A DNA stretch of 64,000 nt from Nemertoderma westbladi. Its lineage: Eukaryota > Animalia > Xenacoelomorpha. The notes beneath the pieces were generated by a model. It was not told the origin of the DNA, made no database searches, and worked only from the letters and a program-made list of their open reading frames with translations. Positions 3,990 through 51,812 of the stretch are shown here, in pieces (position 1 is the stretch's first letter; every line of letters starts with the position of its first letter). The translations under genes were made by a program, and so were the position numbers. The stretch is taken from the NCBI GenBank assembly GCA_032718475.1, contig JAUCBJ010002693.1:1-64000 (forward strand), given 5' to 3'.

Positions 3990-4275
3990 AGATGCACACT
4001 TGAATGAAGAGAAGAACGAATCCTAACGTTATAGCTATATCGATTCTCCTCACACAGATTATGATATACTGAGTGTTTGCAATAAATTAATTGATCATTA
4101 ATTAGGAGTTAGGTCTATATATATCATACTCCCTGGGGAATCCTTTAGTCTAATAAAATAAAAATGAAAATGATATATAATTTATTGTATATAATTTATT
4201 GTCCTGTATATCAAGAATGTGACCAACATTTATTTCTATTACTTTCATATTCCACAATACCACTTTTTTTTATAG

Positions 4276-4371
4276 GAGATGTTGACAAAGAAATTGCTGT
4301 TTATCTTTTAAACAAGGATACTGAGTCAACTATAACTAAAGACGAATTTGGTTTCGATGTTATAGATGATG
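4276..4371 (+). CDS. FREM2: FREM2-like exon (end of last CSPG repeat)
   Basis: tatag|GA GAT GTT...GAT GAT G|gtaag; DVDKEIAVYLLNKDTESTITKDEFGFDVIDD. Confidence 0.8.
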
Positions 4372-7300
4372 GTAAGTTGATTAGGTGTATAAAACTGCCA
4401 AACAATTGGAGGCCAATACTTCCTCACCATTTTTAGCACTATTTAGCAAAATAGTTTGATTTCAAAAAGACATTCACGTACCATTTGTCTTTTATTCTCG
4501 AGTCTATTTAATTTCTAGAAGAAATTTAATAAATGAATATAAGGACACCAATTATAATGCCTGTGTGTTTGGAGCTCTTCATCCGATCTGTTCGCGGTAT
4601 TTCAACTTTCCATAACGCGAGTTGAATATTTTTGTATTTTATTAAAATTGATTATTCCGATATTACTACTGGGTGCGGGACCATGGGTTTTGGGCACATT
4701 CTATAAACTGGGGGCGATTTATGGGCGAATTTTGGGGCAACTTACAGGGTACGGGAATAATTTCATAGTTATAAGGGCCAGGGGGGGATGGAAAATGCAA
4801 GCAGTATTCAGGTTAGCCTGAGTACTATTAGGCCCTGGCCAACTTCCTGCTGTCTGTAGGGGTGGATTTGGTAATGCGCCAGGCCTAAAGGACAAGGACT
4901 GCCCTTAGCAGTCCCTGGCCAACAGCAGCCATTACGAGACTGAAAAGAACTCGGACCGCTGACTGCTTGTGTCAGGGATTTGCGACGGGAAACGACGGCC
5001 CCTTAGTAGCCAAGCCGTTCTGGTTCTCGATGATCGAACCCTTCGGGGTTCATGAGGGGTGGAGCGGACACGCGAATGGGTGGCCAACTAACGACTGCCC
5101 CCTGAGCTAAGCCGTACTGGTTCTCGATGACCGATCCCTTCAGGGTTCGCGAGGGGTGGGACGGACATGCGAAAGGGCTGGCCACAGGACGGGTTTGACG
5201 AGGACTGCCCTTAGCGGTCTCTGGTCAACGGCAGCTACTACGAGACTGAAAAGAACTCGGAACGCTGACTGCTTGTACCGGGATCTGCGACGGGAACCAA
5301 CGACAGACCCCTTAGCCAAGCCGTACTGGTTCTCGATGATCGTTCCCTTCGGGGTTCGTGAGGGGTGGAACGGACACGCGATGGGGTCGAAAGACAAAGG
5401 ACTAGACTCGACTAGACTCTACTGGCCTACCGACTGTTCGGAGCAGTTTCTCGGCTGCCGAAGCGACTACGAGCCTGAAAGGGACTCGGAAAGCCTAGGT
5501 GGTTGGGTTTCTGTGATGAACCGACGGACCCCTAGCCAAGCCGTTCTGGTTCTCGATGATCGAACCCTTCGGGGTTCGTGAGGGGTGGAACGGACACGTG
5601 AACGGGTCCACCGACACGACAGACTCCTAGCCAAGCCGTACTGGTTCTCGATGACCAATCCCTTCGGGGGTCGAGAGGGGTGGTACGGATACGCGACAGA
5701 GTCTACCGACTGGACCGACCCTTAGCCAAGCCGTGCTGGTTCTCGATGATCGTTCCCTTCGGGGTTCGTGAGGGGTGGAACGGACACGTGACAGGGTCGA
5801 CCGACACCGACACTACGGTACTAAGACTAGGACCGAGGGAAAATCTGGGGAACATTAGGTAGGCTAAAATCTGAGCGAACAGTGGATAATTAAATAATAT
5901 ACTGTAGGGATTTATATTATCGTGTATAATTATTGTGAATATTTGGTGTATATTGATTTGGGGAAGCCCAAAATTATTCTTAATCAAGGTTCAACAGAGT
6001 TCAGTTACATTAAAGAGTATATCCAACTAATGCAGCTTTTTCTCAACCGCAACCCTGCATCTCAGAAATCATTCCTTCTCCAAAATCAATATCCGGTGAC
6101 TGGCCGGGGCTCAGTGGTCTGTAAAGTCACGTCGCCAGCATCGGCGTTTTTCCCCCCTGGTGTTGGGATAACGGCAACAAAATTAAGAATAATTAATGCG
6201 GTTAATTTTGACAGGGTGTCAAAATTAAGAATAATTACGGTCAACTTCAACTGGTGGAAGTTGAGAATCCTTCAATACTCTTCAAAACTCTCTACGTGCT
6301 TGCCAGCACCCACTACGAGGAAACTCTGGTATTTGAGTTGAGACGAAGTCGTGGTTTAATTAATCAACAAACTCGATCTAACCAACTCATAGTCGGCAGA
6401 TCACATATTTGGAGAGTTGTTAACAGGGAATGGAAGTATCGATCACACCCATTGATATAATCCAAGTTGAGCCAGGAATCTGGCACGTCGAAGTTGAAGT
6501 ACAAGGAACGAACGTCGGACGATTCAGGATTACCGTTCGGGTGGTCCAAGCTGAGTACAATACCTACGAGGAACTGTTTTATGACATCGCGTATCTAGCT
6601 ATCGACGAGGCGTTACAATGACGACAAATAACGTATCCGATACCGACGAGATGGATCACCACACAGACTCGGAAGCCGACGAGGTACCAAACGTCAAGAA
6701 CATGACCCATCGGCTAGGGGCTCTTAAAGGCGGAGTAACCCGAGCGTATCAACGGATGGAGAAACAACTCAAGGGAGTCAAAACCCCCCTCAATGAGGTA
6801 CAAACTCAGCTTCAAAGTATCCGAAATATCCTACAGCGGTACGAAAGAATGATACAGGCGTACCAAGAGCTCGTTCCCCCCACTGATCAGGAAAACTACC
6901 CCAAGTTGGAAGAACACGTTGTACATCTAGATGGGTTCCGCAAACAACACCGGAGGACCCTCAGCCTTGTGAGAGGCTATGAAGAACAGTATTACAAGAG
7001 GGCTGAAAGAACAGACGCGGAATCAGTACGATCCTCCAGCATCAGGACAGCAGTACATCGAAAGAGAACGGGGTCCGCTAGAAATCAGCACTCCAGCGCT
7101 AGGAGCGAGATATCCGGCTCAGCGCGCAGTTCTCAAGGGGCGCCGCCACTCCGAGACCAACTGCGAGAACGGAAGGCATTAGCCCTCAAAGCTCGGATGG
7201 AAGATGAGTATATTCAACTACAAGCCGAGCAAGATGTATTAGCCGCCGAAACACAAAAGCGAGAGGCCGAACAAGCGGCCGAACGGCAGGCCGAACAACG

Positions 7301-10300
7301 CGAACAGGAGGCCGAACAACATAGACGAGAGGCCGAACGGCAGGCCGAACAACGCGAACAGGAGGCTGAACAACATAGACGAGAGGCTGAACGGCATGCC
7401 GAACAACGCAAACAGGAGGCCGAACAACGCGGACGAGAGGCCGAACGAGAGATCGAACAACGTAAATGGGAAGCAGAAATGCGTAAACAACACGCCGAGG
7501 CCCAAGCAATTCTCATCCACAAAAAGAATGCGGATATTGCAAAACTCGCGGAATACGAAGCCGCACTTATAGAACGAGATATTCAACTCTACGAGGACTG
7601 GGAAAGGGATATAGATCAGGAATATGAACCAATCCCGGTACCGGAGTTAGAAAAGTCATTTACACCGACAGCGGCGAACTTTCCGAAACCCGAGATCCCG
7701 CCTACCAAACAGTCTATGCTATCGGCACAAGCACCGGTGTTCCATCCCCCACCGGCTACGCTAAAGAATGATGAACCTTATTTCCCATCCAACACCACGA
7801 CAGCGAGTGTACCCAAGTACGAGCCTGAAAAGGACTCGGAACGGGACGCCACTCCCCGATCGAACAACCCATTTACATCAACACCACAAACTCGTAGCCG
7901 CGTCATTATTAAAACTCCACCTATTATTGATCCATCAAGTATGGGAGTGAGTGCCAATAACTATAACCCTCCGAGTCACTCCAGTTCAGACGACGTCAGC
8001 ATCATCCGGGCGTTGGAGAACCGCCTTGCCATGCCTAAGATGGAGATTCGCACCTTCGAAGGAGATCCCGTCGATTACCTCAGATTCAAGAAACGGTTCT
8101 TTGCGCAGATCGGATCAACGGACATAGCCGACGCACAGAAATTGGTATATTTATCGCAATACTTGGGTGACAAACCACGCAGAATTATTGCATGTTTTGA
8201 AGGAGGTTCTCATGAGGCATACTATGACGCATGGAAAACTCTAGATAAAAGATACGGAAATACTGGAACTATAATTAATAAAACTCTAGAGAGACTGATA
8301 CAGGACGCGGGATCACTAGGGGACCCACAGAACATACAGGAATTCTCCGACTCTATGAAGGATGCCTACTATACTCTGAAACCCTTAAATAAGGAGGACC
8401 AGGTGAACAACATTCTAAACCTCCGACAGATCGCCCGGAAGTTCCCCGGATGGCTACAAAGTAAGTGGGCTTATAAATGTGTAGATCTCCGGCGCAGACA
8501 TCCAGATCGAGATCCTAGCTTCCTTGAAATGTCGGCATTCCTGGACGATATCTCCGAATCCATGAATGACTCGATGTTTTCAAAACATAGTCTCGCAAAG
8601 TTGGACGGAATAGAGAGCAACTCCAGGAGTAAGATAACCCCTCCGAAACCGAGATTCCGCCCCCCACCGGTAAGTACGATGGCCATTACCATGGCCGAGG
8701 ATTCCGACGACGAAGACTACGAGGAACCGACATCCGCCGAGGAATGGGCATGTTATCTCGCGAGTTGGGCACCCGAAAGGGAAGGCATCACAAATTCCCT
8801 GCTCTGTCTCTTCTGTGGGGAGAAACATAAAGTGGAATTCTGCAGAAAGTTTCAGTTCGCCGAACTCGTCCCACGCTTCGAGGCGATAATGAAACACCGA
8901 GGATGCTTCCGGTGTCTTGGAACAGGTCACTATGTTCGGGAGTGCGACCAAAGATCATGCTGTGCTGTCTGTAACGACCAACGCCATCACACGCTCCTCC
9001 ACATCCCCGCGAACTTCGATTTTACTACCCTCCCCTTTCGGATCGAAGCCAGGCGAAGAGGAGAAACAAACCACGTCTTCAAAGGAACCCGGACAACCCA
9101 ACGGAGAGAAACCAACCCGTTTAAAATCTCCACCGATACACCACAAGTAACAAATATTTCGGCCACGATTAATCTTATAAATCGCCGCTACATGGTCTTC
9201 GCAAAGGTAATCCCAGTAAGGATCCAAGGAGTCGGCAAATCTTTGACGACACTCGCGTTCCTCGATAACGGGTCCGACGGAACCATCATCGACCGGGATT
9301 TCCTCGAGCAACTCGGCCTAGAATATGAACCTTGTAAACGGCCCATACAAACCATCACCGATAACAGAGAGGTAGAGTCCGGGGAGGTGCAACTCCAGAT
9401 GGAAGGAGTGATGAAGGGCTACGAAACGGCTAAGTTAACCATCAAGAACGCCTTGGTACACACAGACCTCCGGGTGCGGTTCCGACAATCAGCCGAGTAC
9501 CCCCCCTCATACAATTGGACCGAGACGATGTAGACCTGAGGTGTCCGCAGTTGGACGTAAACCGTATCACCCTACTGATCAGACTTGATACACCGGAACT
9601 ACACATCCCCACCGGAGATATCGCCCGATCTATAAACCAGGATGACGGATTTTATGCTGAACGAACAATAATGGGATGGACACTCTGCGGCATTAAGGAG
9701 GAAACTACGGACACCTATACCTACCTTCCCAAATGTCAGATTAAAGAGAATGTAACCTCTGTGGGTTATTGCTCAGCTTCGGATCTTGACGAGGATTTGT
9801 TTCTGGAAACCGAGAAAACCCAACGAGAGATGACGAAATATTTTAATTTGGAGACCCAGGAGTTCGCGGAAAAGGACGAAAACCCATCCGAAGAGGACCA
9901 ATATTGTATGGACGTTCTCGACCAGGCCACGTTTAAAGACGGACACTGGTGTTCACCTATGTTATGGAAGGACCCAAACAAACCAATGGCAAACAACGCC
10001 AGCATGGCACTTAGGCGACTTAAAGGGATTCTACGCCGGCTGAATGACCAACCCGAGATAAAGGAGAAGTATAATACCGTAATCCAAGGATATCTCGATG
10101 ATGGATTAGCAGAAATGGTACCACGGAACGAACTGCAAGGTGGTAAAAGAACATATTATCTCCCAACCCACTATGTAGTAGAAGCCCGCAAAGGTGGGAA
10201 AATCCGAGTGGTAAATGATGCTGCCGCTATGTACCAGGGCGAATCCCTAAACAGTCAACTTTACACGGGACCCAACATATATAGCACACTCATCGGCGTA

Positions 10301-13300
10301 TTGATCAGGTTCAGGGAAAACCGGGTAGCATTCACCTGTGACATCAAGGCCATGTTTCATCAAGTTCGTACGTTACCAAGAGACTCGGACTGTCTACGTA
10401 TCCTATGGACAGATAAAACGCTTACTCAACAGGAGATTAGCCAACTCACGATAAAGGACGTAGACGTAATGCGTATGGTCGTCAGGATCTTCGGCGCTAA
10501 GGACTCGCCGGTAGCATGCAGTGACATGCTAAAGAGGACGGCAACTATGTGCGAAAACGAGTTCCCTCCAACCGTCATAGAAACCATTCAACGATGCTTC
10601 TACGTGGACGACGGATGCGACGGCGCGGATAATGTAGATGAGGCGTATCGGCTAGCAATGGGGATGGTAGAATGTCTAAAGAAAGGAGGGTTTCCGCTCG
10701 TGAAGTTCAGATCCCATGACAAAATACTTATGGAAAAGTTTCCGCAGGACATCCGGCTGGAAAATAACAAAATGTATTCGGAGGATGTGGAACACCGTGT
10801 ACTCGGAATTGAATGGGACATAGAATCAGACGAATTCATCTTCAAATATAAACCCTTACCCAAGCCTATGACAAAAAGGGGATGTTTGTCGATAAAAAGC
10901 GCCATCTTCGACCCACTAAATTTCATATCTCCAGTAACCTTGGCCGGAATGAACCTGATTAAGGAAATGTGGATAGAAGGACTGGGATGGGACGAAGAGC
11001 TCCCCCCACACCTCAGCGTCAAATGGAGAAAATGGACGGAGCAGCTCGAACACCTACATCTTATGCGGATACCTAGACCGTTCTTCCTCGATAAATTGCC
11101 CACAGATATCTTCCAGCTCCACACCTTTTCGGATGCTTCAAATACCGGAATCGGCGTAGTCACCTTCTTACGGAGACTAAGTAACGATGGAAACGGCGAT
11201 ACAAGCTTCTTATTCTCCAAAGCAAAGACAGTATCCGGGGAATTCGTAGCAACGATTCCGAGACTCGAGCTACAAGCTGCGGTTTGGGCAGTAAGACAGA
11301 ATCGCATGGTCATGCGAAATCTACGGATCCCCATAGAATCTCAACACTTCTGGGTCGATTCGAGTATAGTTCTCTATTATCTCCACTCTCCATCACGGCG
11401 CCACACCACGTTTGTTGCAAACCGAGCCACGGAGATTAAACAGTGTACCGGCCGAGAACAGTGGCATCACGTGAACAGGAAGGAAAACCCAGCGGACTTA
11501 TCAAGCCGAGGCGCCACCCCAAAACAACTCGGCAAAAGTAAACTCTGGCTTACAGGCCCGGAATTCCTACGGCAGCCACAATTAACATGGAGTACACGAT
11601 TCGACCCCGAGCTCGATAGCGGAAAATACTCCGAGGACGATAAAGAGATCCGTAAAATCCATCGAAGCAACGCGGTGGAAATTTATAGTTGTCTGACTGA
11701 GCCTGCAAAGGACTCGGGCAGGCACTATAACGTCGCGACGATCACTCAACTAGCGGCGTCTTTACATCGGTTGATCGAGCGAACTTCATCCATGAGACGG
11801 CTCGTCCACCACGTTATAACCCTTCGCAACTTCCTACGGTGGAAAAACAACAAACCGATAGTTCAACGGAATATACAAGAACTCATTATCGCGGAGAAGT
11901 GTATTGTTAGATATGTCCAGAAAGAAAGTTTCCCCGATGAATGGGAACAACTTAGTGCGGGCAAAACATTGAAACCGGACAGCCCAGTCTACCAACTGAG
12001 ACCAATGATGGGAGAGGACGGACTGATCCGACTGAATACCCGGATGGCAAACGCCCCGGTCGAATATGAGGTTAAATACCCGGCGCTTCTGCCCGGAACG
12101 TCGACACTAGCTAAGCTATTAATTCTACAATGTCACGAGGACAACCACCACGCAGGACAGAATTGGATTATAGCTAATATAAGACAAAGATATTGGATCA
12201 CCCACATCCAGCCACTGATCCGGAAAGTGTTGAAACGTTGCTTCACCTGCAGACGTTACCTAGCGCCACCAATCACCCAAAAGATGGCCGACTTACCAGC
12301 CACCCGTCTACAAGCGGATTCCCCACCATTCTACGTCACCGGAGTGGACTGTTTCGGACCGTTCACAGTTATTGAACGACGATCCAACATCAAATGCTGG
12401 GGAGCCATCTTCACCTGCCTGAGGTCTAGGGCAATTTACCTAGATATCGTGGTAAATCTGACACAACACGCATTCATCAACGCTCTGCGTCGGTTCGTGG
12501 CGAACAACGGGACATGCCGCCACATGTATTCCGATAATGGTACAAACTTCGTGGGAGGAGAAAGAGAACTTAGAGAAGCGATCGAGGGATGGTTTACCGA
12601 TAACACCGCATCCCAAGTCTGGAAGGAACACCAGATACAGTGGCACTTCCAGACCCCCTTAGCACCCCATACGAGCGGGGTATGGGAGAAACTGATCGAC
12701 CTAGTAAAACGATCCATGCGCGTCGCTCTAGGTGATACCCGGGTAACCCATGACACCCTCCGCACAACATTCTGCGAGATCACGGCTACCCTGAACAACC
12801 GACCCATTGTCCCTATCCGCGACGACCCCACAGACCTGGAGCCCCTCACTCCTAACCACCTACTGGGGAGACCCAAAACCCACGTTCTCCCGGAAACCAT
12901 GTTCCCGGATCCCAACGAGATCGCGAAACATACAAACTGGAAAAAGGCCCAAGCGTTGGCAGCGCATTGGTGGAGAATTTGGGCCCAGGAGTACCTCATA
13001 ACCCTCCGGACCAGGAGGAAATGGAACAACACCTACCGGAACGTCGCAGTTGGCGACATGGTACTAGTTAAAGAAGATCTCAAAGACCGCGTTCACTGGC
13101 CTGTGGCGCGGGTCGTGACCATACACCCAAGCAAAGACGGACTTGCGAGGACTGTGACGATACGAACGTCAAAGGGCCACTACCAACGCCCTATCCAGAA
13201 GCTGTGCCTTCTTGAAGGCAATGATAGCGGTGACTCTACGAGAGGTGATAAGATCCCTACTCAAGATCCTGCTGTGGACATTGGTGACAATTACAAACCC

Positions 13301-16300
13301 GTGTAACCCTTCTCATCATGTTGACAAACTCTTATAAAACTGTGATTTATCGACAACGAGTTATGGACCCCCTTTAAACCAACTGTAACCACGCAATGGT
13401 ATTTGTGTTTCCTCGTGTGTTATGTGGAGTCCAGCATCACCCTGCAGATGTTTCGACTGACGCAGGGTCGTTTATGCATTGTTTACCCTGATTTTGGTCA
13501 TCAGGACCTACGATATTGGATTATTGGAAATGGAAAAGATTTGAAGTGGAATTCATTGTATTCATCGCAGTATGTTATGTTGTCCGTTGCGTGCGCAGTT
13601 CGGGGCGTAGGCGGTGTAACAAGTCCAGCTGTAGGCGCAACACCCCCTCTATCCCGTTATTCTGGTGGGTCCATGGTGCATCCACATGACTTCGACGATA
13701 GAGGGTTTTATGTTTCTCAGTCGCGTTATTCTGGTGGGACCGTTACGTGGATTTTGGGGCGTAGGCGGTGTAACGAGTCCAGCTGTAGATCCCAGAATGT
13801 TGCGTAGCCCCATCCCACATGACTTCGTCGACTGAGCTTTATGTTGTTGGGAGTGTTATTCTGGTGGGTCCCTGGTGCATCCACGTGACTTCACTCCCAG
13901 CGTCGTCATTGTCCGTTACGTGCGCAGTTTGGGGCGTAGGCGGTGTAACGAGTCCAGCTGTAGATCCCAGATTGCCGCGTAACACCCCTTCCACGACAAA
14001 GATTAACCAAAGAAAATGATTGAATATAGTTGGAAATGATGAAAAGGATCAGACAACTCTGCTATAAACCTGAATGATGACGCGTATGCTGATGAAAATG
14101 AAATGATGCGCACCCTGGTGCTGCGCTTATAACCAATGATGATAGCCGGGGGGCTATAAACCCAATGATGATGTGGAAATAAATAAATGTGAAATAAATG
14201 GTGGAAATAAATGTTGAAATATATGTGGAAATAAATGAAATGAGATAAAATAATAATGAAATGAAAAAAGACAAAAAAAGGTATAAAAAAGTCTAAAGAA
14301 AAGAATTGGAAAAAAGAAAGGACAAAAAGGTCATAAAAAACTGGTTGGATATTAATGTATAGCTATAGTAACTGTAAATGCTGAATGTATTAGCAATAAG
14401 ATGATAGATGTCTATATAGCAATATTATTTAATAAACTGAATTAAATAAAAAACTGAATTATTCTGCTATCGCTATAGTTTCAGACTTTCTGGACTTATA
14501 ATTAACTGATCTAATTTGTAACGGATATAATCGTAAATATGGACCCAAATCGCCAAATTATCGGCGAATTACGTAACACGATAGATCTACTGGAATATTC
14601 GCAACCTGGATCCCCTGACTTTGATACAAATTGGAGCACCCTGCTAAATGAGAACATGCGAGTCATTAAATTCACCGGGCGAGAGGGACCGGATTCTAAG
14701 AATCTACGAGCCCTCCGGTTAGCCGATGCTAGTACGAGACTGAAAAGAACTCGGAACGCAAAGGCAACCGGAGGGGACGATTCGTCGTTTTGGGAAACGT
14801 TCCGGCAGAGCGTCTACAGATCCCGATGTTTGATCTACGACAACGAGGGAAACGCGACGCCCACCTCGAAAGCGATTACGTTGGCGAGATGTCAAAGTTT
14901 CGTCGACGACAAGAGTACGTACCTCGCCCACTGGGGAAACCTGTCGGAGTGTACGGCGACGCTTCGAGAGGAACGCGTATCGATTATCCAGAACCGAGAC
15001 GACTACCAGGAAAAGTACGGGGCGAAAGAATACGGTCGATCCTTAGTCGTCGTCCTCGGAACCCTGGACGGTTTGGTACTTGTGTGCCGAATATTCCCGA
15101 CACCCAGACAGGAAGTGCAGGCAGCCGGAGCGATCTGGTTGCTGCCTCCAGAAATCCAAAAGATCCTCTTCGACTTCGACGTCATTAAAATCGGGTCGGA
15201 TATCAAGGCGGACGTCCGGAACGACTACGCGAACGCCCCTGCAGGAAGAAACCGACGAGACGACCTCAACGCCCTTAGCCATTGCATCGACACTCAAACG
15301 CTACTAGCCTGGTTACGATTCGCCGAGTTCATGTGAGGATTCCAAGAGGTGAGACCGACGAAATCCGGGATCGGCTACCTCGCTGTGCTAAACGGCGGTA
15401 TCGACTTCAAACCCCAGAAATTCCGGGACTATAATAAAATATACGGTGGATACCCGGGATTAGAAATAAAGAGCGAGCGAGAGGGTCGATGGAAGGACGT
15501 TGATCGGAAGTGGACGATACACCAAAGGTGGGAGAATCCCGATCGACGGAACTACGTTTACGTCGTTATGGAGTGCTACACCGTCGCTAAGTTTATCTGT
15601 AAAACTCTCGATAACCTTATTACGGCGGTCCCCCTTTCCTTCGTCGACTACGACTGGAACGAGGTCATACACCACGCGTTCAAAGCGGTCGAGAACATCG
15701 CACCGGGAGAGACTAAAACGCTCGCCGTTATCGATTCCTGGGACGAGAGCGGGCCTTACGACATCCCTACGATTACCAAACTTCTCGGTGCGGAGGAGCC
15801 TCTGATCTCTTCGGAAGGGGAAGAGATATGGCTAAACGAGGGTGTTCTACTCTCCACCCCGAAGCGACAACTCGAGCCGGAGGCCGCGTATGGACCGGCC
15901 GCCAAACGGGTTGCCTCGGCCGAACCGATGAAGAGAGCAGGCGTTTACACCCCACGCGGCTCCGGTAGCCCCGCGAGGGAGGTAGCCACTACAGCTGCAT
16001 TGAGCGACTTCGGCAACATATGCCAACGGTTATCCCCGTATCCTTTCCCGGGTGGCGAAGATTGGTCGTCGGAGATTCCGAGTACCAGCCACCAACGGAC
16101 CCGCTCAGCGATACTGGTCGAGGAGGGCCCCAGCGATGCGCCGACCCCCGACGATCTCCTCGGTATCCCTCCGTCTAAAACCCCGGCACCTCTTCGCCGA
16201 CCAGCGGTGGCTACTACACCCGCCGTTCCTCAGGACCCTATGCGACTAACCCGTTGGTACGCCGAGCAAACTGAATGGATCCACCGCCAGAAACGGTCGT

Positions 16301-19300
16301 CTGAGTTGAGACCAGCGGGACACAAAGAAGGTTATCGGAGCGAGAACCTACTACGCAAAAGCCTAGCATTCCGCGGGCTACCGACCACCGCGAATATTCC
16401 GAAGAGCGACCGACGACTCGAGTATCACGTCGGCGTCCCGATTCCGATATTTCCTGGTCGAGAGATGCAGTTGGAGGTATGCGGCGACTGTGGTTCGGAG
16501 CAGTGCCCACGCGGTAGAAGGAATCGGGTTACCGATTCTTGCCTCCAGCTCCTCGGGATACTCTATTGCCCATACTGCGCGACATCGGGCCACGACGTTT
16601 CCGTCTGTCCGATCCTTTATAACCTCTGCACCACGTGCGGTTTCCGTGGACATTCCTCTAGCCCCCGCTGCTATATCAAATGTCCAACCAAAGACGTTAC
16701 CGCTATGGGAAATATGGTCATGTTTGAAACATACGCAAACAGCCACTTAAAGACCAAGGTTCGGAGAAACGCTCGGAATATCGCGCAGGAGATGGCGTGC
16801 GGGTATTTCTCTTTCCCGGAACGCCTCCACACGTCGGCCACGCTACCTTTCCATTACGTGGATCTGCTACTGAGCGCCGGATTATTCGGTCCATTTGAAG
16901 TCATTAGACGGTTATACTCGTATAAAGAGGAGTTCGGTGACGGAGAGTGGTTCCTAGAGGCAGGCAAGTCTGAGTTGGAGAGACGAACCGACATGATCCC
17001 TATGCCATCGAAAGGAAGAGCCGCCAGGAGACAAGCCGAAGCGTTACTCACGATGGACGTTGACGCTCCTCTACCAGCCATAGCGATCGATGAGAGTCGA
17101 CGGGCGAAGAGACGAAAGGCGTATCAGAGAAAGAAATAGTGGATCGGGATATTCCAGGAACATTTATCAAACATTTATTTTTATACAAACTCTAGGCCAA
17201 ATTAATTAAAAACTATGCAATATTAAATTTGGGTTTTTTATATTGGGAATGACCTACGCAAACTCAATCGACCGACAGACTTCACGAAGGTCATTGGGGG
17301 GGACTGTTCGCGGTATTTCAACTTTCCATAACGCGAGTTGAATATTTTTGTATTTATTCAAAATTGATTATTCCGATATTACTACTGGGTGCGGGACCAT
17401 GGGTTTTGGGCACATTCTATAAACTGGGGGCGATTTATGGGCGAATTTTGGGGCAACTTACAGGGTACGGGAATAATTTCATAGTTATAAGGGCCAGGGG
17501 GGGATGGAAAATGCAAGCAGTATTCAGGTTAGCCTGAGTACTATTAGGCCCTGGCCAACTTCCTGCTGCCTGTAGGGGTGGATTTGGTAATGCGCCAGGC
17601 CTAAAGGACAAGGACTGCCCTTAGCGGTCCCTGGCCAACAGCAGCCATTACGAGACTGAAAAGAACTCGGACCGCTGACTGCTTGTGTCAGGGATTTGCG
17701 ACGGGAAACGACGGCCCCTTAGTAGCCAAGCCGTTCTGGTTCTCGATGATCAAACCCTTCGGGGTTCGTGAGGGGTGGAGCGGACACGCGAACGGGTGGC
17801 CAACTAACGACTGCCCCCTGAGCTAAGCCGTACTGGTTCTCGATGACCGATCCCTTCGGGGTTCGCGAGGGGTGGGACGGACATGCGAAAGGGCTGGCCA
17901 CAGGACGGGTTTGACGAGGACTGCCCTTAGCGGTCTCAGGTCAACGGCAGCTACTACGAGACTGAAAAGAACTCGGAACGCTGACTGCTTGTACCGGGAT
18001 CTGCGACGGGAACCGACGACAGACCCCTTAGCCAAGCCGTACTGGTTCTCGATGATCGTTCCCTTCGGGGTTCGTGAGGGGTGGAACGGACACGCGATGG
18101 GGTCGAAAGACAAAGGACTAGACTCGACTAGACTCTACTGGCCTACCGACTGTTCGGAGCAGTTTCTCGGCTGCCGAAGCGACTACGAGCCTGAAAGGGA
18201 CTCGGAAAGCCTAGGTGGTTGGGTTTCTGTGATGAACCGACGGACCCCTAGCCAAGCCGTTCTGGTTCTCGATGATCGAACCCTTCGGGGTTCGTGAGGG
18301 GTGGAACGGACACGTGAACGGGTCCACCGACACGACAGACTCCTAGCCAAGCCGTACTGGTTCTCGATGACCGATCCCTTCGGGGTTCGAGAGGGGTGGT
18401 ACGGATACGCGACAGAGTCTACCGACTGGACCGACCCTTAGCCAAGCCGTGCTGGTTCTCGATGATCGTTCCCTTCGGGGTTCGTGAGGGGTGGAACGGA
18501 CACGCGACAGGGTCGACCGACACCGACACTACGGCACTAAGACTAGGACCGAGGGAAAATCTGGGGAACATTAGGTAGGCTAAACTGAGCGAACAGTGGG
18601 TAATTAAATAATATACTGTAGGGATTTATATTATCGTGTATAATTATTGTGAATATTTGGTGTATATTGATTTGGGGAAGCCCAAAATTATTCTTAATCA
18701 AGGTTCAACAGAGTTCAGTTACATTAAAGAGTATATCCAACTAATGCAGCTTTTTCTCAACCGCAACCCTGCATCTCAGAAATCATTCCTTCTCCAAAAT
18801 CAATATCCGGTGACTGGCCGGGGCTCAGTGGTCTGTAAAGTCACGTCTCCAGCATCGGCGTTTTTCCCCCCTGGTGTTGGGATAACGGCAACACGATCCA
18901 TATAGACATCCGTATAGAACTAATTAGCTGGTATCGACCCCAGTGGATAAAAGGGTGAGTGCACCCTGGAGAGATACAGCATTACATTTTTTTTTATTCC
19001 TTATTATAAACTTTGTTGTTTTTCTTCCTCTAGGTGGTAACGCCTTACAAAGCCAAAAATTTACTCTCGAGTGGTCCTGGATTTACATGGATACAAAGGA
19101 AGTTATAGTTAATGAATCCAATGCTTATATCGATGTGAAGTTAATAAGGAATGGCTATCTGGGAGAGCAATCTGTTATAGGTGAGTGAAAGATGCTAAAC
19201 GTGGAAATATATTAAATATATAAATTGTTGGTCTATATTTTGAATTATTAATTTGCTTGAAACAAAACAACTTTATGAAGCTTTATTTCAAAAAATGTGC

Positions 19301-22300
19301 CGCCATAATAATATGTTTTGACCTAAATAAAACATATATCTGTGCAGTAACTGTGCATCAAATCTTACCGCTCTATCGAAATTAAATATGTACAAATCTA
19401 TGATTTTACCGATAATAACCTATGCATCACCATGTTGGTCTCCAAATAAACACGACCTATCACGTATAGAGAGTCTACAACGACGTGCCACTATCTGGAT
19501 ACTACGAGATAATGAATCGACCTACACAGATCGGCTCAAATCACTTAACATTCTCCCCCTTTCTCTCTACCTACAACTCCTAGATTTGATGACGCTGTCG
19601 AAGATTATCGCTGGAAAATGCGATATCAACTGGGAAGAACACCTCAAACTAAGCAGACCATCAAACCAAAATACTCGTTCAAATGATCGGATTTTATTTA
19701 ATGTTGCGCGGCCGAAGAAATGCAAGTCAGAAAAAAACTTTTGGTTCCGAGTACCTTACATTGCAAATGTATTACCTAATCGAATCAATTTCACAAACCA
19801 TTTAGGGCTTAAATCTCGTCTGATCGATTTATTTTGGAGGTACTTCATTAAACACTACTCAATTGATATTCCCTGTAGCTGGTCGGTGTGCTGCAGCTGC
19901 GTCTTGATGAACTGTAGAAATAATAACTCTCGTCTCGATGATTTATACCCATAGATAACGACTTATATTCTATAATGCTTTATTTAATTAATACAAATTT
20001 TATTTCACTTCACATCCACTCTGACCCTTTTAATACGTATTTACTGCATCTCATTTTAAATTTAATACGCATATATTTTATCTCATTTTTACGACATCAG
20101 AGACCGACCCTTTTATTAATACGTATATATACGTATATGTCATCGTATTTAAATACAAATATTTCTATCTAATTTCATATAACATCCAGTCTTCTGACCC
20201 TTTTAACTTCTTCGTTTAATCTCATAATTAGCACGGCCTTTTTGAGACCAATTACATACAGTAATAATTTTAATTCGGTGTATTTTAATGTACCTTAATT
20301 AATTATTAACTCATATTTTAAACTAAGTAATGTATGAAATGTATGTAATGTATCTTTTATGGGGGAAACCCCATCCCCATATAATACTATAGTTAAATCT
20401 GTCGACATATGCTGTCTTTGTTCGGTTCTAAGTTATGGTGTAAATTTATATTAATAATAATAATAATAATATATTATCTGTATAGGCTGTGGTAAAGTCT
20501 TATCGGTAGGTAGTGGGGCTTCATGGCCTAAGATGTGGTAGGCAGACTCCATATGTAACTTATTCTCAATGCAATCGCGTGCTGGTGAGTTTCAGCCCCC
20601 CCCCCCCCCCCCCCCCCCCCCCACTCCAACACCAACACCAACACCAACACCAACAACTGGCAATGGTATATTAACTGATGTACCAAAGGAACCTAAACTC
20701 GCACCAAGTTCCCAAATTCCTAAAATATATTCATAAATTCGTCTTGATGTAATAACAGTAATTTGAGAACCTAATTTCTAATTACGGGGTCCTAAATTCG
20801 TAGTTTGGTAGACATTCGCAATTCTAGACATTCTCTGCAAACCCTAATTGGTTAATTACTTCTCTACTAAAATTAATATCAATTAAAGGTATGCTCTTCC
20901 TGAAGAACTACTCAAATGTAGTTAGCCGCCCGACCATGATATTGACTAACGTTCTAGAAATCGGTTAACAAATAATTCCCATCAAACTGAGGAGAACATA
21001 CACAATCGCCATACCAAAATGACGAAACAATATTCGTCTTTCTAGGAAACTGAAAATGTATGTGGCTTTTCCACAAATTTCCTCATATATTCCATAAATG
21101 ATATACCAACCCAGACGAAACAAAAATGGACAAGTAGCGAGCGAGCGGAAACAAGAATATTTAGAAACCAATGATTAATAATTAATTTGAACGATTTTAC
21201 ATTTTTCCTCTATAAGTTTTTCTCTTATCTCGGTTATCCTCCTCCAGTTATCAGGTTGAGGCTTCCCGGGGGATTAGCGAGATGGGAGAGACTATTGTAT
21301 AATCGGTTCCTCTCTGGATTTCGAGTAAATCTTCCCCAACATTCTGAGGTATTACTGAAGGAAATAAGTATATTCCTGACGTCTCTTATTTTTGCTGGAT
21401 TGGGGGGAGGCTGCGGCAATCACTACTATCCCACAAAATGCCCCTCTCTCTCTCTTGGTAGCTGCTACATTAGCGCTAATGCGATGTGCATCTGATGGAC
21501 GGACTGGGAGCTGGCGAGAGTAGCCACTGGCCCAGAGATACTCAAGCCTTTTATTCCCTGCCGTTATCTCCCCAGCCCTAGTAGTGCCACCTGGTCGTTA
21601 GTTTTATCAGCAACCCGGGGAAAGAAAGTTCGGGATATTTCGGGTTGGCAGGATAGATAATCATCCTAACTGTAGTTTGGTATTTTAGATTTGGGGTTTT
21701 CTATCAATTTTCTAACTGGTGCGCTGAAGCACGGGATTTTGTCAAGGCTATTTGTATACCGTAGTACTTACGCAAAGTGTTATAAATGGGAAAGACTAAA
21801 AAAAGGGTTTAATAGTTATGGAGTGTTTACGTTGGGAGTTAGTGTGGCGCCCTCAATTCCAAGAAAAGGGAGCTTTCTGCTTCCTCTGGTGATTCATTTT
21901 TCATTTCCACCGATAAATTTTTTCCAAGTTCCAGAAACAGAAACAGTACTTGTATAATATACAAAAAGTATCGTTGAGTTCTCTCTATAAACATCTGACC
22001 ACGAAAAGTTTAGAAACAACTGGTGTTTATTATGTTATCCTGAGACAAGATTTATATAGTTTAAGGGTTTGATAATAAATTTGGCCTACTTAAAAATTAC
22101 CCATTTTAGTAGACATAATGAAATACTATGATAGACTATACTACTGTATGATCGATTTAGGGACTGTAACATATGTCCCTAAACATCTTTGAGTAATATT
22201 ATCACAAATACAAACTACAATATGTGTTGAATGCTTTTAAAAGTTTAATATAATTTAATTTAAAATATTAAGGGAAAGGAGCTAGGATCGGCATGCTGCA

Positions 22301-40300: not shown

Positions 40301-43300
40301 CTAAGGAGGTTGGATTGCATATAAATGCTACCAAGACCGAATTCATGACCTTTAATGTTGATGGAAACTTGACAACCATTGATAATAATCAACTAAGGAA
40401 GGTCGAGGACTTCCAGTACCTTGGATCGTGGATAGAGAGTAGCAAAAAGGACATAGAAGTTAGGAAAGCAAAGGCTTGGGTAGCTCTATCAAAAATGGAT
40501 ACCATCTGGAAATCAGATCTCTCCAGGCACCTGAAGACTAAGTTCTTTCTAGCCACAGTGGAAAGAGTATTTTTATACAGGGGTTGAGACCTGGACACTG
40601 ACTAAATCACTTGAACAACGAATTGATGGTTGCTACACAAGACTATTAAGGGCAGCCCTAAACATCAGCTGGAGACAACACATGACAAACGCCGAGCTTT
40701 ATGGTTCAATACCACCTGTATCAACCACCCTCCGTGAACGCAGATTAAGATTCAGTGGGCACTGCTGGCGAAGTAAAGACGATGTCATACCAGATCTACT
40801 TCTCTGGCAACCAACTCATGGAAAGCGTAGTCGTGGACGACCGGCCATAACATATATAGATCAACTTGAAAGGGATACTGAACTTGGGAGAAACGAAATT
40901 GCGACAACTATGGAGAATCGGGAAGCCTGGAAGGATCTCATTTCCACTGTCCGAGTTCGCTCGATCTAGTTAATACTTATTTCTATAAATAATTACATTT
41001 TGTTTTTTTAGACAGTGACGCCCATCTAGTTCCTAAATTCCCGGATGAGCCGCTAGTTGTCTCTCTGTTGGATTACGGCAGCGGTGCCCCCCCTAGCGGA
41101 ACGATACCGTCTGGATATCCGGTTGTCTGCGTTTCGGTAAGTTAATCTTAATGAATACTGGTTTTAAATTTAATATTCATGGCTCGTCCCACAATATATT
41201 TTGTGTCGCCACTATTTTTTATTGCATAAATATCACATTAATGATACTTAAAAATATATTTACATAACAGTGCCTGTTAGTTGCTAGGTTACCACACAAG
41301 TAGTTCCCCCATTTGGAAATATTCAAGAATTTGTAATTGTAATTATTTAATTTAAAATGACTTAACTATATCTAAATAAATGAGTGAGATATTTTATTGC
41401 AATATTAACAGCACATTTGACAAAACAACGAAACTGATGCATTTTTGAAACCTGATGTATTGTTTGAAATTGCGAAATCTTAAATATTGGGAGGCCATTT
41501 TGATAAAAAATCAGTATTTTCTTAAACCACATTTTGATATAAGGAAAATTAATCGTGTAATTAATACATAATATATTCGAGTGGAAATAATATTGCGTAA
41601 ATTTGAAACTGTATTCCTCCTTGCAGAGTGAGTCATAATCCACTCTCTGCTATAATACTCATTGAGTTATGGCTAATTATTTTACACAACTATTTTGAAT
41701 TTTGAAATTTGAAATTTGAGATTCTAATTTATTTTTAACTTAAAAAATAATTTTGTTTCATTGTGTGTTAATATTGTATTTAATTTAGTAGTAATATATT
41801 TAATTGCTCTTCCCATTGATAGGCTTGCGACCAGGGCCATCCAAGATATGGCGAGAATAAACGGAAATGTCGGACTCAATGGATAGACAACAGCAAAACT
41901 CGTTACAAGTGGGATGTTAAACCGAGTCACAGTCTGGAGTATCGGTAAGTCGTCTAATATGGTTGGTAAAGTAGTCTAATATGGTTGGTAAAGTCGTCTA
42001 ATATGGTTGGGAAAGTAGTCTAATAGGGTTGGTAAGTCGTCTAATATGGTTGGTAAAGTAGTCTAATATGGTTGGTAAAGTCGTCTAATATGGTTGGGAA
42101 AGTAGTCTAATAGGGTTGGTAAGTCGTCTAATAGGGTTGGTAAGTCGTCCAATATGGTTGGGAGAGTAGTCTAATAGGGTTGGTAAGTCGTCTAATATGG
42201 TTGGTAAAGTCGTCTAATAGGGTTGGTAAGTCGTCCAATATGGTTGGGAAAGTAGTCTAATAGGGTTGGTAAGTCGTCTAATATGGTTGGTAAAGTCGTC
42301 TAATAGGGTTGGTAAGTCGTCCAATATGGTTGGGAAAGTAGTCTAATAGGGTTGGTAAGTCGTCTAATATGGTTGGTAAAGTCGTCTAATAGGGTTGGTA
42401 AGTCGTCCAATATGGTTGGTAAAGTCGTCTAATAGGGTTGGTAAGTCGTCCAATAGGGTTGGGAAAGTTGTCTAATAGGGTTGGTAAGTCGTCCAATATG
42501 GTTGGTAAAGTCGTCTAATAGGGTTGGTAAGTCGTCCAATATGGTTGGTAAAGTTGTCTAATAGGGTTGGTAAGTCGTCTAATATGGTTGGTAAAGTCGT
42601 CTAATAGGGTTGGTAAGTCGTCCAATATGGTTGGGAAAGTAGTCTAATAGGGTTGGTAAGTCGTCTAATATGGTTGGTAAAGTCGTCTAATAGGGTTGGT
42701 AAGTCGTCCAATATGGTTGGGAAAGTAGTCTAATAGGGTTGGTAAGTCGTCTAATATGGTTGGTAAAGTCGTCTAATAGGGTTGGTAAGTCGTCCAATAT
42801 GGTTGGTAAAGTCGTCTAATAGGGTTGGTAAGTCGTCCAATATGGTTGGGAAAGTAGTCTAATGGGGTTGGTAAGTCGTCTAATATGGTTGGTAAAGTCG
42901 TCTAATAGGGTTGGTAAGTCGTCCAATATGGTTGGTAAAGTTGTCTAATAGGGTTGGTAAGTCGTCTAATATGGTTGGTAAAGTCGTCTAATAGGGTTGG
43001 TAAGTCGTCCAATATGGTTGGGAAAGTAGTCTAATAGGGTTGGTAAGTCGTCTAATATGGTTGGTAAAGTCGTCTAATAGGGTTGGTAAGTCGTCCAATA
43101 TGGTTGGTAAAGTCGTCTAATAGGGTTGGTAAGTCGTCCAATAGGGTTGGGAAAGTTGTCTAATAGGGTTGGTAAGTCGTCCAATATGGTTGGTAAAGTT
43201 GTCTAATAGGGTTGGTAAGTCGTCTAATATGGTTGGTAAAGTCGTCTAATAGGGTTGGTAAGTCGTCCAATATGGTTGGGAAAGTAGTCTAATAGGGTTG

Positions 43301-44945: not shown

Positions 44946-46088
44946 GTATGTAAGCCCTCTCTCTCTGTCTCGTATAATATATAAAACAGTTTAGTTTGAG
45001 AGAAATTTAATTTTAATTAATTATGTGGACTTCATTTCCTCTATTTCTCTGCAAATAAATGGGCGGATTTTACAAACATGTCAAAATTTTAATTCAATTG
45101 TCAAAAATTAGAAAGTGCACCACATCGCTAAAAATTTCAAGCACTGACTATACACATACCGGCAACTATAATGTTTTTCAAACAGATTATCCGCGGCTTT
45201 TTCTAAGTCTTTCCAGAAATTGTTATTGAGTAAAGCTTAGTATGCTTGCTTCGTCGGCTGTCTGTGTTCTTCTCAGCTCTGGGTTTTGATAGTCAGACTG
45301 ACTGACGTTTGGACAGACCGAAAGTTACACGGTCATAGTAACAGTATAAAAAATGAGAAACTGACATTGGTAATTAAATTCGTCGCCCAATAAATAATTA
45401 GTGGAACTGGAAAGGTAGCGAAAAATTTAGCTTTAGGTTTTATGTTGCCCTTACTGATCTTTTAACTTAAAGGTAAACACAAGAGTCTCACACCCTTAAA
45501 CTACAAAGAAATACAGAATCAGGGCATTAAGCCCAAATTAGTAACTCATAACTCAGACGATAGGGCCATCAAAGGACACAAACAAAACAAACAAAAAACA
45601 CAAAAACGTCAAACAAAAATAACTTAATAACACGCTCCACATACAGCTGTATGTATATCGCAACCCTAACCCCTAACCTAACCGCCATACACTAAATGAT
45701 ACCGGTAATAAACTGCACGATAGCTAAGCCTATATTCTATAAGAAAATATATGACAATTTTGTCGCCGTGAAAGGGGTAGGACTAGGGAAAAAATAATTA
45801 ATTTGTGAAAAATATGGTTGCGTTTCGGCGTCTGAGACCCAGTACGCGCTAATCCTCGACACCTCGTCAGCTGGACAGGGAATTAGCCAAGCCTATCTAT
45901 ATTGCAGGTCTCGGCCACAGAAAGTGAAAAAAAAAACGAAACGTAGCTGTCAAAATATATATTTTTTTTAAATTAGTAAAAGTATATATCATTCGATTGC
46001 ATTTCTTCCACTGATTGCGAATCTGACAATAAAACAAAGATATTCAAAAGCTAAGAAAATATGGGCAAAAAACGTAAACTTGCAGTCG

Positions 46089-46834
46089 AACTCTACTTTT
46101 CCTGGTGTAGTGTTTGGATTCCTTTCCCAAACTCTACTTTTCCTGGTGTAGTGTTTGGATTCCTTTCCCAAACTCTACTTTTCCTGGTGTAGTGTTTGGA
46201 TTCCTTTTCCAAACTCTACTTTTCCTGGTGTAGTGTTTGGATTCCTTTTCCAAACTCCACTTTTCCTGGTGTAGTATTTGGATTCCTTTTCCAAACTCCA
46301 CTTTTCCTGGTGTAGTGTTTGGATTCCTTTTCCAAACTCTACTTTTCCTGGTGTAGTGTTTGGATTCCTTTTCCAAACTCCACTTTTCCTGGTGTAGTGT
46401 TTGGATTCGTTTTCCAAACTCTACTTTTCCTGGTGTAGTGTTTGGATTCCTTTTCCAAACTCTACTTTTCCTGGTGTAGTGTTTGGATTCCTTTTCCAAA
46501 CTCCACTTTTCCTGGTGTAGTGTTTGGATTCCTTTTCCAAACTCTACTTTTCCTGGTGTAGTGTTTGGATTCCTTTTCCAAACTCTACTTTTCCTGGTGT
46601 AGTGTTTGGATTCCTTTTCCAAACTCTACTTTTCCTGGTGTAGTGTTTGGATTCCTTTTCCAAACTCTACTTTTCCTGGTGTAGTGTTTGGATTCCTTTT
46701 CCAAACTCTACTTTTCCTGGTGTAGTGTTTGGATTCCTTTTCCAAACTCTACTTTTCCTGGTGTAGTGTTTGGATTCCTTTTCCAAACTCTACTTATCCT
46801 GGTGTAGTGTTTGGATTCCTTTTCCAAACTCTAC
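46089..46834. repeat. 41-bp tandem satellite (~18 copies)
   Basis: AACTCTACTTTTCCTGGTGTAGTGTTTGGATTCCTTTTCCA repeated with very few variants. Confidence 0.97.
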
Positions 46835-47206
46835 AATTTTGTGTCGAGTTTGGTCTTTGCTCCTATCGAGAAGCCAGAAAATAATTCCAATTTTTCCAAT
46901 AATCCAATAATTCCAAAACAATTCCCTGTGATCTGATTGGATAATATCATCATTTCTTGTTAAATAATCACATCAAATTTGATATATTCCGAGAATCCTC
47001 AAGACTCATTAAGCCGGGCAATGCCACCATGGATGGGCGATCTTCCTTTATAGTGTTTTCTACATGTTACCGCAAGTGAAAAAGGTGACCTCCAGTGCAA
47101 ATTAACTGAAAGTGAAAATACGTTTTGGTTATTGTTTTGGTTAGAAAACACCGCCGCTATAACCTGCTCAGCTTATTTCCCCTAATGTTTTAAATTAAAT
47201 TAAACT

Positions 47207-48692: not shown

Positions 48693-50292
48693 TGATTTTG
48701 ATTTGATTTGATTTAGTTTAATTCACATATAGTGACAATGACACATACACATAAACACAATACACATAATGTTTAATATATATAGTAAAATGCTTAGTAA
48801 AAACTGTTAGTTCAGACTATTAAAAGCACGAAAATTAAAATTGCTAAATGTTGAAAAAGTCGGTAATATGTTTGTGCTTAGCACTGAAAGTGTTCCCTGA
48901 TAATTTATAAATCTGTTGTATAAATCGCGCTTCTTCAGCGTGTTGTGGTGATGCGGTTGGTGGGGATAAACGTTGGAATAAATTTTTAGTATGGTACTCG
49001 TAATTGCAGAGTGATGTAATGGAGGGTAGTCCGTAACTTACGACCGATTTTCTGTGCATGCTCCCCAGTCCTTGATACTCAGAACGATGGTTAGATTGCA
49101 ATGTAATCCGGAGGGATTCTTGGACATTTGTGTTGGGGCATTTTAGCGCACGAAGCAACGTACCCAAACATGATTTGTAACCCTCTAGCGACAGTGTTCC
49201 AGTTCCAAACAGATGATAAAGGGTCTCATTGGATACGTAGCATCCTAAGTGCAGGATCCCCCGTAATTGTTTCCTGTAATACAATTCCACAGTTTCAGTG
49301 TCCTTTTTGGATAGCTCCCCAATGCGAAACTTGAGTCGGTATAACAAGGATGATAGGGCAACAGTCCGCCATAACATTGCCACCGTCTGTACAGGATAGT
49401 GTTTCGTCGTCCACCCGTTTCTGTGGAACGAGTCTGTGAGAGCGGCGATCGATTGTATGATGTCTGAGGCCCCTGTTTTGTTATGTCCCGGACTTCCATA
49501 GATTGTGACCCCAAGAAATGTTAGGAACGGTGATGCTGCATGAAGATGGTCATTAATGGAAATCATGAGTGGTGGGCTCTGATTTTTTTTATTATGGTAT
49601 GGTTCTTTGAATATCCAATTCACTTTGGTTGTTTCCAAGACAAGGTTTAGATTAGTCAGTTTGGATTGTATGAGAGTGGTCATCTGTTTGATTTCGTTGT
49701 CGGAGGTTCCCAGCAGCAGTATGTCATCAGCATAAGATAGCGCGCTTATAATCAAATGAAAAATTCGGCAACCTCTACTGTCTGGACCCCCATCGTGTAG
49801 TTGTGAGAGAACACCATTCGTGTAGAAGTTAAATAAAATTGGTGATATGATTGATCCTTGTTTCAAGCCATTGTGCATTGCGAATCCATTTACATCTACT
49901 GAGCCGTTGATGTTTATGAATACTGTGCTCAAATTATAGTATACAGCCAGAAGTCGACATATATGGGGATTCATATGACCTGATAGTTTCTTGAACAAGA
50001 GGTAATGGTTGACTGAGTCAAATGCTGATGCAATGTCCATTTGGCAGACATAGACCCTGGACCCCCTGCTGCGATAGAATTCAATATATTCCAGTATGGC
50101 ACTGATTATGATATCAGACCCTATGAGCTTTTGGTAGGCAAATTGCTTTCCGTCAGGCTGTAAGTCAGCTAAGTAATCCTTCAGTATTACACCTTCAAGA
50201 ATTTTTGCGAATAGACTGATAGATGCAATAGGGCGGTAGGATGAAGGATTTAGAGTGTCTTTGCCTTTACCTTTGTAGAGACACTTGATAAC
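48693..50292 (-). mobile_element. LINE RT fragment (L2/CR1-group-like) with (AAATC)n tail
   Basis: SYRPIASISLFAKILE, QFAYQK, DIASAFDSVNH, GLKQGSIISPILFNFY, LSYADD; the frame is open up to the LTR edge at 50292; GATTT repeats at ~48695-48715. Confidence 0.88.
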
Positions 50293-51541: not shown

Positions 51542-51812
51542 CCGCTCCCAGAAAATGGGATTTGAGTCTATAAAATATACAAAATCACAGTTTCTAATAT
51601 ACGTAAATACTCTAAACAGTTAGTCTTTCTTGCGCGGACGGCGTTTACGCAGTTTTTTAAAGCTAGCCAGAGTCCTTTTCTCTTTGGGGCGAGCCACTTT
51701 ACAAGGAGGGCTATAACTCCTGGGTGAAGGGTGCAATATGATTGCATCAGAGGGTGTAGGATTATGGTCGGTGTATCCGCCAGTCGAAGTACCGGGTTGA
51801 TTGACATCAATG

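Follow-up and report, generated by a model that had tools for sequence, protein, structure and literature searches.

A BEL/Pao long terminal repeat (LTR) retrotransposon of the xenacoelomorph Nemertoderma westbladi carries nine copies of one compact RNA module, three per LTR and a single one inside gag, inside pol and inside a third open reading frame (ORF3), and the case that selection acts on the RNA structure of this module is well supported. The element occupies 14.3 kb (positions 4589-18893) of the window analyzed here, the first 64,000 nucleotides (nt) of contig JAUCBJ010002693.1 (assembly GCA_032718475.1). Scanning both strands of the 64-kb window for a 17-nt core recovered nine matches, all on the plus strand (starts 4936, 5242, 5471, 7821, 11699, 14736, 17652, 17958 and 18187), and no module outside the element. 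The coding cores lie at 7821-7837 in gag (encoding EPEKDS), 11699-11715 in pol (EPAKDS) and 14736-14752 in ORF3 (TRLKRTR). In the predicted fold a sarcin-ricin (S/R)-type loop forms the base of the module; above it stand four pairs, then either a bulged A on the 3' side or an A/AA loop, then a further two or three pairs capped by a GNRA loop. Its copies in the 5' LTR and the three genes are as follows:

4929..4958, plus strand: module copy A1 (5' LTR), with an S/R-type loop with bulged U, an A/AA loop and a GAAA hairpin.
5235..5264, plus strand: module copy A2 (5' LTR), with a bulged C; 31 of 34 letters in common with the ORF3 copy.
5464..5493, plus strand: module copy A3 (5' LTR), with a bulged C, a C-G pair plus bulged A, and a loop closed by U.G.
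7814..7843, plus strand: module copy in gag, with a bulged-G S/R loop, a bulged A and GAAA; basal stem within 7805-7854.
11683..11730, plus strand: module copy in pol, a GCAA-loop apical hairpin on a long stem, without an S/R loop; extent possibly 11671-11737.
14729..14758, plus strand: module copy in ORF3, with a prototype bulged-G S/R loop, an A/AA loop and GAAA; basal stem 14711-14775.

The first-pass annotation of this stretch had described one LTR hairpin motif recurring in gag, pol and ORF3, the last in a different codon register, with GNRA kept between GAAA and GCAA forms. All of this is borne out by the nine matches: the first base of the core falls at codon position 1 in gag and pol and at position 3 in ORF3, and 9/9 loops are GNRA. 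The 18-nt unit drawn in that annotation proved too short, the actual unit being ∼30 nt, with an S/R-type 5x4 loop beneath the hairpin in all copies except pol. Its placement of copies every ∼2-4 kb agrees with the distances between successive copies along the element (2350, 3878, 3037 and 2916 nt); these intervals are too few to establish regularity.

Base composition predicts 0.0004 occurrences, in the 11.1-kb internal region, of a pattern that was itself defined post hoc from the copies. Shuffling codon order restored the pattern at the gag, pol and ORF3 sites in 2, 2 and 4 of 20,000 trials each, and synonymous shuffling with the protein held fixed restored it in 57, 18 and 7 of 5,000 each. 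Because the search pattern had been drawn from the copies themselves, we also trained a weight matrix on the three 5' LTR copies only, excluding the coding copies. It scored ORF3 at 40.2, gag at 38.8 and pol at 15.4; the next internal site reached 2.9, and the top score outside the element or on the minus strand was 7.3. A covariance model of the six aligned copies recovered the same nine sites at 43-62 bits (six of them by construction), the next hit scoring 13.7 bits.

In the predicted folds, every copy but that of pol (8/9) contains a 5x4 internal loop closed by C-G pairs below a CGAG/CUCG stem, with U.A and sheared A.G pairs adjoining the upper helix. Both of these pairs are invariant across the five distinct non-pol loops; A.A or A.C follows them, and at the lower pair the loops carry C.C, U.C, G.A, A.C or U.C. 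These combinations are all named for S/R motifs (PMC8450098). As the bulged base, gag and ORF3 have G, four LTR copies have C and two have U; a bulged C is known from 16S h27 (PMC8450098). The gag and ORF3 loops match inner strands of S/R sequences listed in PMC4551918, and the full S/R-plus-hairpin pattern was kept in only 3/10,000 (gag) and 0/10,000 (ORF3) synonymous shuffles. The predicted fold and S/R geometry suggest that the module is an elongated version of the ribosomal sarcin-ricin loop, with the apical hairpin as the sole part common to all nine copies because the pol copy has no S/R loop. A known ribozyme or Rfam cis element was considered as the identity of the module and rejected, as Rfam gave three matches within 4000-19500 (E 0.78-0.86), all far below the gathering score and none on the module.

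Several lines of evidence point to the RNA as the level at which the module is conserved, as the first-pass annotation had proposed. Across the three frames we scanned 72-nt windows, 384 in all, against 30 synonymous shuffles apiece, and the first four ranks in folding stability belong to module sites: ORF3 (z = -5.4), pol (-5.2 and -3.3) and gag (-3.3). The next-ranked windows, 12386-12457 (z = -3.1) and 12866-12937 (z = -2.9), lie in the integrase region and are not module copies. The stems of that annotation are present in the predicted folds, for which comparison with 200 dinucleotide shuffles gives z = -2.6, -4.8 and -6.7. The coding copies use two codon registers for the core, and the LTR copies, being non-coding, use none. 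In the predicted folds each copy sits on its own paired basal stem despite unlike flanks; the 40-nt flanks of the coding copies match those of other copies at only 5-16 of 40 letters, and their basal stems are therefore unrelated, again as claimed. Across the six aligned copies 90% of 60 cells pair, compared with 15-52% in slid registers, and two of the three pairs beneath the loop show two-sided changes. Conservation of the peptide is not an alternative for pol, as EP.KDS occurs in 0/210 Pol-family homologues and EPAKDS is accordingly not a family trait. A double-stranded DNA binding site such as an internal enhancer, with the hairpin incidental, could account for a strongly conserved core (16/49 alignment columns invariant) that is repeated in the LTR where promoter elements lie. 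Such a site is very improbable given that 9/9 copies share one orientation, that the flanks conserve pairing and not sequence, and that the loop varies like an RNA 3D motif.

The pol copy lies in the linker between RNase H and integrase, which is 81 residues long compared with a median of 57 and is equaled in length in only 1/120 homologues. Around the motif ∼20 residues face gaps in ∼90% of 120 Pol homologues, and the excess of 21-24 codons is close to the hairpin length of 48-67 nt, as would be expected of an insert. The linker length thus suggests that the hairpin entered pol as an in-frame insert, a reading from length only because the homologues are distant (best-scoring 26-37% identical over the region, ∼35%); a search for Pol homologues among shorter proteins found none that was close. 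An RNA signal appears to have entered a protein in frame, so that RNA function would dictate ∼20 residues of Pol. The first-pass annotation had placed the copies in flexible protein regions, and the over-long linker supports this for pol; for gag it is based on a Pro/Thr/Ser-rich stretch upstream of DUF1759.

All three sites lie in regions likely tolerant of inserts, and the copies might be LTR fragments that template switching at stable hairpins brought in and that the linkers simply tolerated. The near identity of the ORF3 copy and LTR A2 and the lack of significant depletion of sibling variation (see below) fit such neutral capture. We nevertheless regard it as quite improbable, because the module, three times over, is the only LTR sequence found internally and is bounded at its closing pairs, and because none of the six kink-turn (K-turn)-like hairpins that accompany it in the LTR occurs in the internal region. 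In addition, the complementary basal stem under each coding copy is its own and does not resemble the LTR stems, and the fold is kept although no LTR copy comes closer than 8 differences in 34 letters to the gag copy or 13 to the pol copy.

Variation among sibling copies was assessed at the gag site only, over 251 nt in contigs of four runs (at most three samples), with variants counted from 4%. There are 23 variable places in the 251 nt, of which place 7772 is private to the window copy and was removed before counting. With the core set at 7807-7849, a boundary drawn after the data were seen, varying places number 2/43 in the core and 20/147 in the flank (p = 0.083), and varying third codon positions 1/14 and 15/49 (p = 0.069). 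Counting only flank variants of ≥10% gives p = 0.25 for all places and 0.12 for third positions. The synonymous dip predicted by the first-pass annotation therefore has the right direction at gag and is not significant. A comparison of structure-breaking core variants (0/43) with all flank variants (p = 0.004) was set aside as not like for like. Variant 7831, at 21-28% of depth, changes the loop-closing U-A to U.G and Lys to Arg and is also present in the sole contig of run X4 spanning the 251-nt stretch; LTR copies of the A3 type may contribute part of its depth. Variant 7808 turns U.G into C-G in one of the two registers of near-equal energy available to the gag basal stem. Both variants inside the hairpin thus retain pairing in one register, and one also alters an amino acid. 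More distant contigs start aligning at 7804 or end at 7861, close to the bounds of the gag hairpin.

Some observations weigh against the protein-binding explanation favored below. The depletion of sibling variants in the gag core (p 0.07-0.25) is suggestive only, and depth over the module is up to ∼2.5x flank depth, which dilutes rare variants. Variants 7808 and 7853 break pairs of the gag basal stem when it takes its lowest-energy register. Since the six copies are paralogues, their covariation counts lack independence. The pol copy has a near-continuous helix where the others have the S/R loop, and the C that replaces the bulged G in LTR copies (others carry U) costs an S/R motif ∼5.5 kcal in vitro (PMC8450098).

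Within the LTR the module alternates with a second type of hairpin. Writing A for the module and B for these hairpins, the order is A B B A B A B B B:

5026..5774, plus strand: six K-turn-like hairpins of the 5' LTR, starting at 5026, 5123, 5332, 5552, 5647 and 5742, with UUCG-type caps.

The hairpins have a 4x4 internal loop on variable basal stems and lie within 5003-5806 of the 5' LTR and 17719-18522 of the 3' LTR. A fixed-register check showed that a K-turn register, one of two possible registers, fits all 12 hairpins of both LTRs, with a GAU bulge, G.A and A.G pairs, C:G at -1, and U.U, C.C or C.A at 3b:3n; 11/12 also have C:G at 4b:4n. K-turn pairs of this kind (C:G at -1 and at 4b:4n) favor ion-induced folding (PMC5689011). 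The energy model favors the non-K-turn register for the B hairpins and their covariation is not above shuffles (214/500), so we limit the label to K-turn-like; a strict generic K-turn scan matched only 2/12. The likely TATA box (TATAAA at 4702) and the likely poly(A) signal (ATTAAA at 5889) bracket the 5' LTR copies, which suggests that the whole hairpin array lies within a long repeated (R) region and would be present at both ends of the RNA. Two loci elsewhere with the K-turn-like pattern were rejected, as neither matches the proteins or DNA of the element and one (L001) is a chance match without a stem.

This arrangement bears on two further explanations of the module. The GNRA loops might dock into receptors, perhaps the K-turn-bent LTR hairpins, and so compact or dimerize the genomic RNA without a dedicated protein. 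Docking would make use of the GNRA identity of all nine loops and of the interleaving of modules with six K-turn-register hairpins whose features favor ion-only folding, and we consider it unlikely: GAAA and GCAA loops usually favor different receptors, the covariation of the K-turn-like hairpins stays within shuffles, and no GNRA receptor was identified, though no systematic search was made. Alternatively, nascent-RNA hairpins could recruit a factor in the manner of the trans-activation response element (TAR) or boxB, letting polymerase II read through the 5' LTR poly(A) signal and a cluster of six AATAAA at 14178-14445. Three copies do fall within the interval from the likely TATA box to the likely poly(A) signal, the AATAAA cluster lies between pol and ORF3, and a short GNRA-type hairpin is the boxB design. 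Read-through is nonetheless improbable, since the ORF3 copy is downstream of the AATAAA cluster, the pol copy is 2.5 kb upstream of it, and the same modules in the 3' LTR would have to allow termination; the RNA start and end on which it depends are themselves presumed.

The explanation we favor, with about an even chance of being correct, is that the module is a repeated protein-binding tag that would load a protein along the RNA, serving its nuclear export and its delivery to packaging by Gag. An additive tag of this kind is argued for by the repetition of a compact conserved module at both ends and in each gene, at a cost to the protein. Copies would have moved between LTR and coding regions in two or more lineages, probably when reverse transcription switched templates: the ORF3 copy is nearest LTR A2, and the C-G form is common to gag, pol and LTR A3. 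Presumably a copy survived only if it lay in frame within a tolerant linker, and every survivor acquired a basal stem of its own. The resulting RNA would carry module clusters at both ends in the long R region and single copies 2-4 kb apart between them. The apical bulged-A GNRA hairpin may be the minimal site, to which the S/R loop could add affinity or a second partner, and candidate binding partners are the Gag knuckles, Rev-like knuckles of ORF3 or a host export factor. The likeliest job would be exporting the 13-kb RNA and passing it to Gag, with precedents in the scattered export elements of a murine retrovirus (PMC7551171) and the scattered sites suspected for Ty packaging (PMC4974528). 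Export is favored over selective packaging because subgenomic RNA, if any, would bear the tag as well, given its presence in R and ORF3. This counts against the packaging half of this explanation, as does, for the whole, a second BEL-like element of the window that has no module copy.

Several stem-loops within coding sequence are also the layout of ASH1 (PMC4615550), and the hairpins might instead recruit a motor adaptor that carries the RNA into the germ cell, as the ASH1/She2p system or the I-factor localization signal (ILS) with Egl-BicD do for their RNAs. Egl recognizes bent A-form stems carrying a 3' bulge, with two such stems in each transcript and one of them in the I-factor coding sequence, and selects two spaced U-A pairs (PMC13186709). 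Compared with these criteria, the module has the 3' bulged A, whereas its upper helix is of two or three GC-rich pairs. Moreover, ASH1 and ILS signals share little sequence and the module is sequence-conserved, making localization a distinctly unlikely function.

Among the possible readers of the putative protein-binding tag, the ORF3 protein is a candidate because of its Cys/His knuckles:

14539..17139, plus strand: ORF3, 866 codons, with one in-frame stop at 15334-15336.

In three runs virtually all contig depth shows a sequence other than that of the window here, and the stop is therefore private to the window copy. ORF3 has an N half weakly resembling an exonuclease, a Pro-rich middle and three Cys/His clusters toward the C end. 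The N half falls near rotifer DNA_pol_A_exo1/DnaQ-type exonuclease clusters (score 0.91, a weak likeness), and profile matches to the knuckles near the C end are also weak. Protein searches found no sequence homologues of ORF3, comparison with solved structures gave nothing below E 0.06, and the single-sequence structure prediction has a predicted local distance difference test score (pLDDT) of 33. A selenocysteine reading, combining the UGA in ORF3 with AUGA/GA hairpins, was rejected because the stop is private to this copy and also because those hairpins have a seven-pair stem with a UUCG-type cap. Carried furthest, the protein-binding explanation would make this a "complex" BEL/Pao element with a system like Rev and its response element (RRE), in which ORF3 knuckles read an S/R-loop mimic copied from the LTR into every gene as in-frame inserts and the R region serves as a hairpin/K-turn scaffold at both RNA ends; we consider this full version rather unlikely.

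The element that harbors the module is a young BEL/Pao LTR retrotransposon present in high copy, bounded by TG...CA and by a 5-bp target-site duplication, its LTRs (1591 and 1589 nt) differing in 19 columns:

4589..6179, plus strand: 5' LTR, TG...CA, with a 5-bp target-site duplication and a GC-rich structured block at ∼4890-5830.
6618..9533, plus strand: gag-protease ORF, with DUF1759, Cys/His knuckles and aspartyl protease.
9434..13306, plus strand: pol frame, stop to stop, with reverse transcriptase, Peptidase_A17/RNase H, Integrase_H2C2 and DUF5641.
17305..18893, plus strand: 3' LTR, with module copies at 17645-17674, 17951-17980 and 18180-18209 and six K-turn-like hairpins.

Assignment to BEL/Pao is based on Pfam domains of the first frame (DUF1759, knuckle, aspartyl protease) and second frame (Peptidase_A17, Integrase_H2C2, DUF5641). 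They follow the BEL/Pao order of Gag DUF1759 and knuckles, protease, reverse transcriptase, Peptidase_A17 and integrase with DUF5641, and PF05380 is present in 120/120 Pol homologues among the matches listed. Summed contig depth over the element is ∼17,000-61,000 compared with ∼30 in unique flank (run X1), which points to a very abundant family, depth not being copy number; run X5, guessed to be RNA, was left out of the evidence. The gag-protease and pol frames overlap at 9434-9533, a stretch within which copies differ in length. No primer-binding site starting TGG was found after 6179 behind the 5' LTR, no tRNA set having been compared; an 18-nt direct repeat lies within 6178-6260, and 44 nt of this stretch are skipped by some contigs. 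The 1.2-kb spacer between pol and ORF3 (13307-14538), with three 59-nt repeats, other short repeats and an A-rich tract that holds the six AATAAA, could act as an internal poly(A) site or as a promoter for ORF3. Exon-like stretches flank the element at ∼4277-4375 and 19033-19180, suggesting that it inserted in sense orientation in an intron of a host gene, conceivably one for a Calx-beta-like protein; the 48 residues tried gave no Pfam match.

The second BEL-like element of the window (50293-61735, minus strand) has identical 635-nt LTRs and a 1292-codon DUF1759 frame, with little pol match and a weak match to the ORF3 knuckle region at 52296-52445 (E 5e-4). An RVT_1 reverse transcriptase frame at 48844-50313 (minus strand) adjoins its LTR and is probably a non-LTR element interrupted by it. 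Tandem satellites occupy 1-800, 41900-44300 and 45960-46960, with units of ∼22, 21/22/43 and 41 nt.

Beyond the window, the viral and metagenome contig collections searched contain little eukaryotic DNA. Viral contigs gave no match to the module pattern or to Pol, and metagenome contigs gave three loci with the module pattern, none with a retroelement protein (best tblastn E 0.19); two of them (L003 and L004) are the same prokaryote-like sequence. Literature searches found no prior description of the module and no description of export or packaging signals for BEL/Pao; Repbase/Dfam and most subscription papers were not covered. Six distinct places of one element are marked here by one compact, sequence-defined module whose natural variants (S/R loop present or absent, C-G or A.A, GAAA or GCAA) already map its tolerances, making dispersed, additive RNA tags directly testable with RNAs of 30-70 nt.

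In its closing of a stem by a GNRA tetraloop the module resembles the ribosomal sarcin-ricin loop (helix 95). Between loop and tetraloop the module has six or seven pairs and a bulged A, in contrast to a single pair in the ribosome, and it further departs from the S/R motif in the bulged C or U of its LTR copies and in its pol copy without the loop. Among bdelloid LTR elements, Juno and Vesta likewise have a third ORF after pol, of DEDDy type (PMC5408684); the present ORF3 is far longer and has Cys/His knuckles, and its likeness to theirs rests on weak cluster placement with no catalytic residues identified. The ASH1 zipcodes E1, E2A, E2B and E3 and the I-factor ILS also place several stem-loops in the coding sequence of one RNA (PMC4615550, PMC13186709), nearly without common sequence, unlike the sequence-conserved, GC-rich, GNRA-capped module.

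Export and packaging signals are poorly defined even in Ty1 and Ty3 (PMC4974528). As in the present element, cis signals of Ty1 and Ty3 overlap gag and scattered packaging sites are suspected; that source describes no repeated defined module, and the main Ty1 signal lies in the first 580 nt (PMC4974528). Closest in arrangement are the constitutive transport element (CTE)-like γ-CTE and cytoplasmic accumulation element (CAE), among others, of murine leukemia virus (MLV), the Mason-Pfizer monkey virus (MPMV) CTE and the direct repeats of Rous sarcoma virus (RSV), where several cis elements are likewise spread along retroelement RNA, some inside coding sequence and some on both spliced and unspliced RNA (PMC7551171). 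The AAGACA loop, set on a long stem, of NXF1 export elements of the γ-CTE/CTE type is absent from the six aligned copies. MLV has five scattered export elements, which are distinct structures (PMC7551171), whereas the present element repeats one module and its host is a BEL/Pao element and not a retrovirus. Dispersed cis elements are known as a category; to the extent of our searches, what is new is one 3D module that recurs in the LTR and inside gag, pol and ORF3 of a BEL/Pao element.

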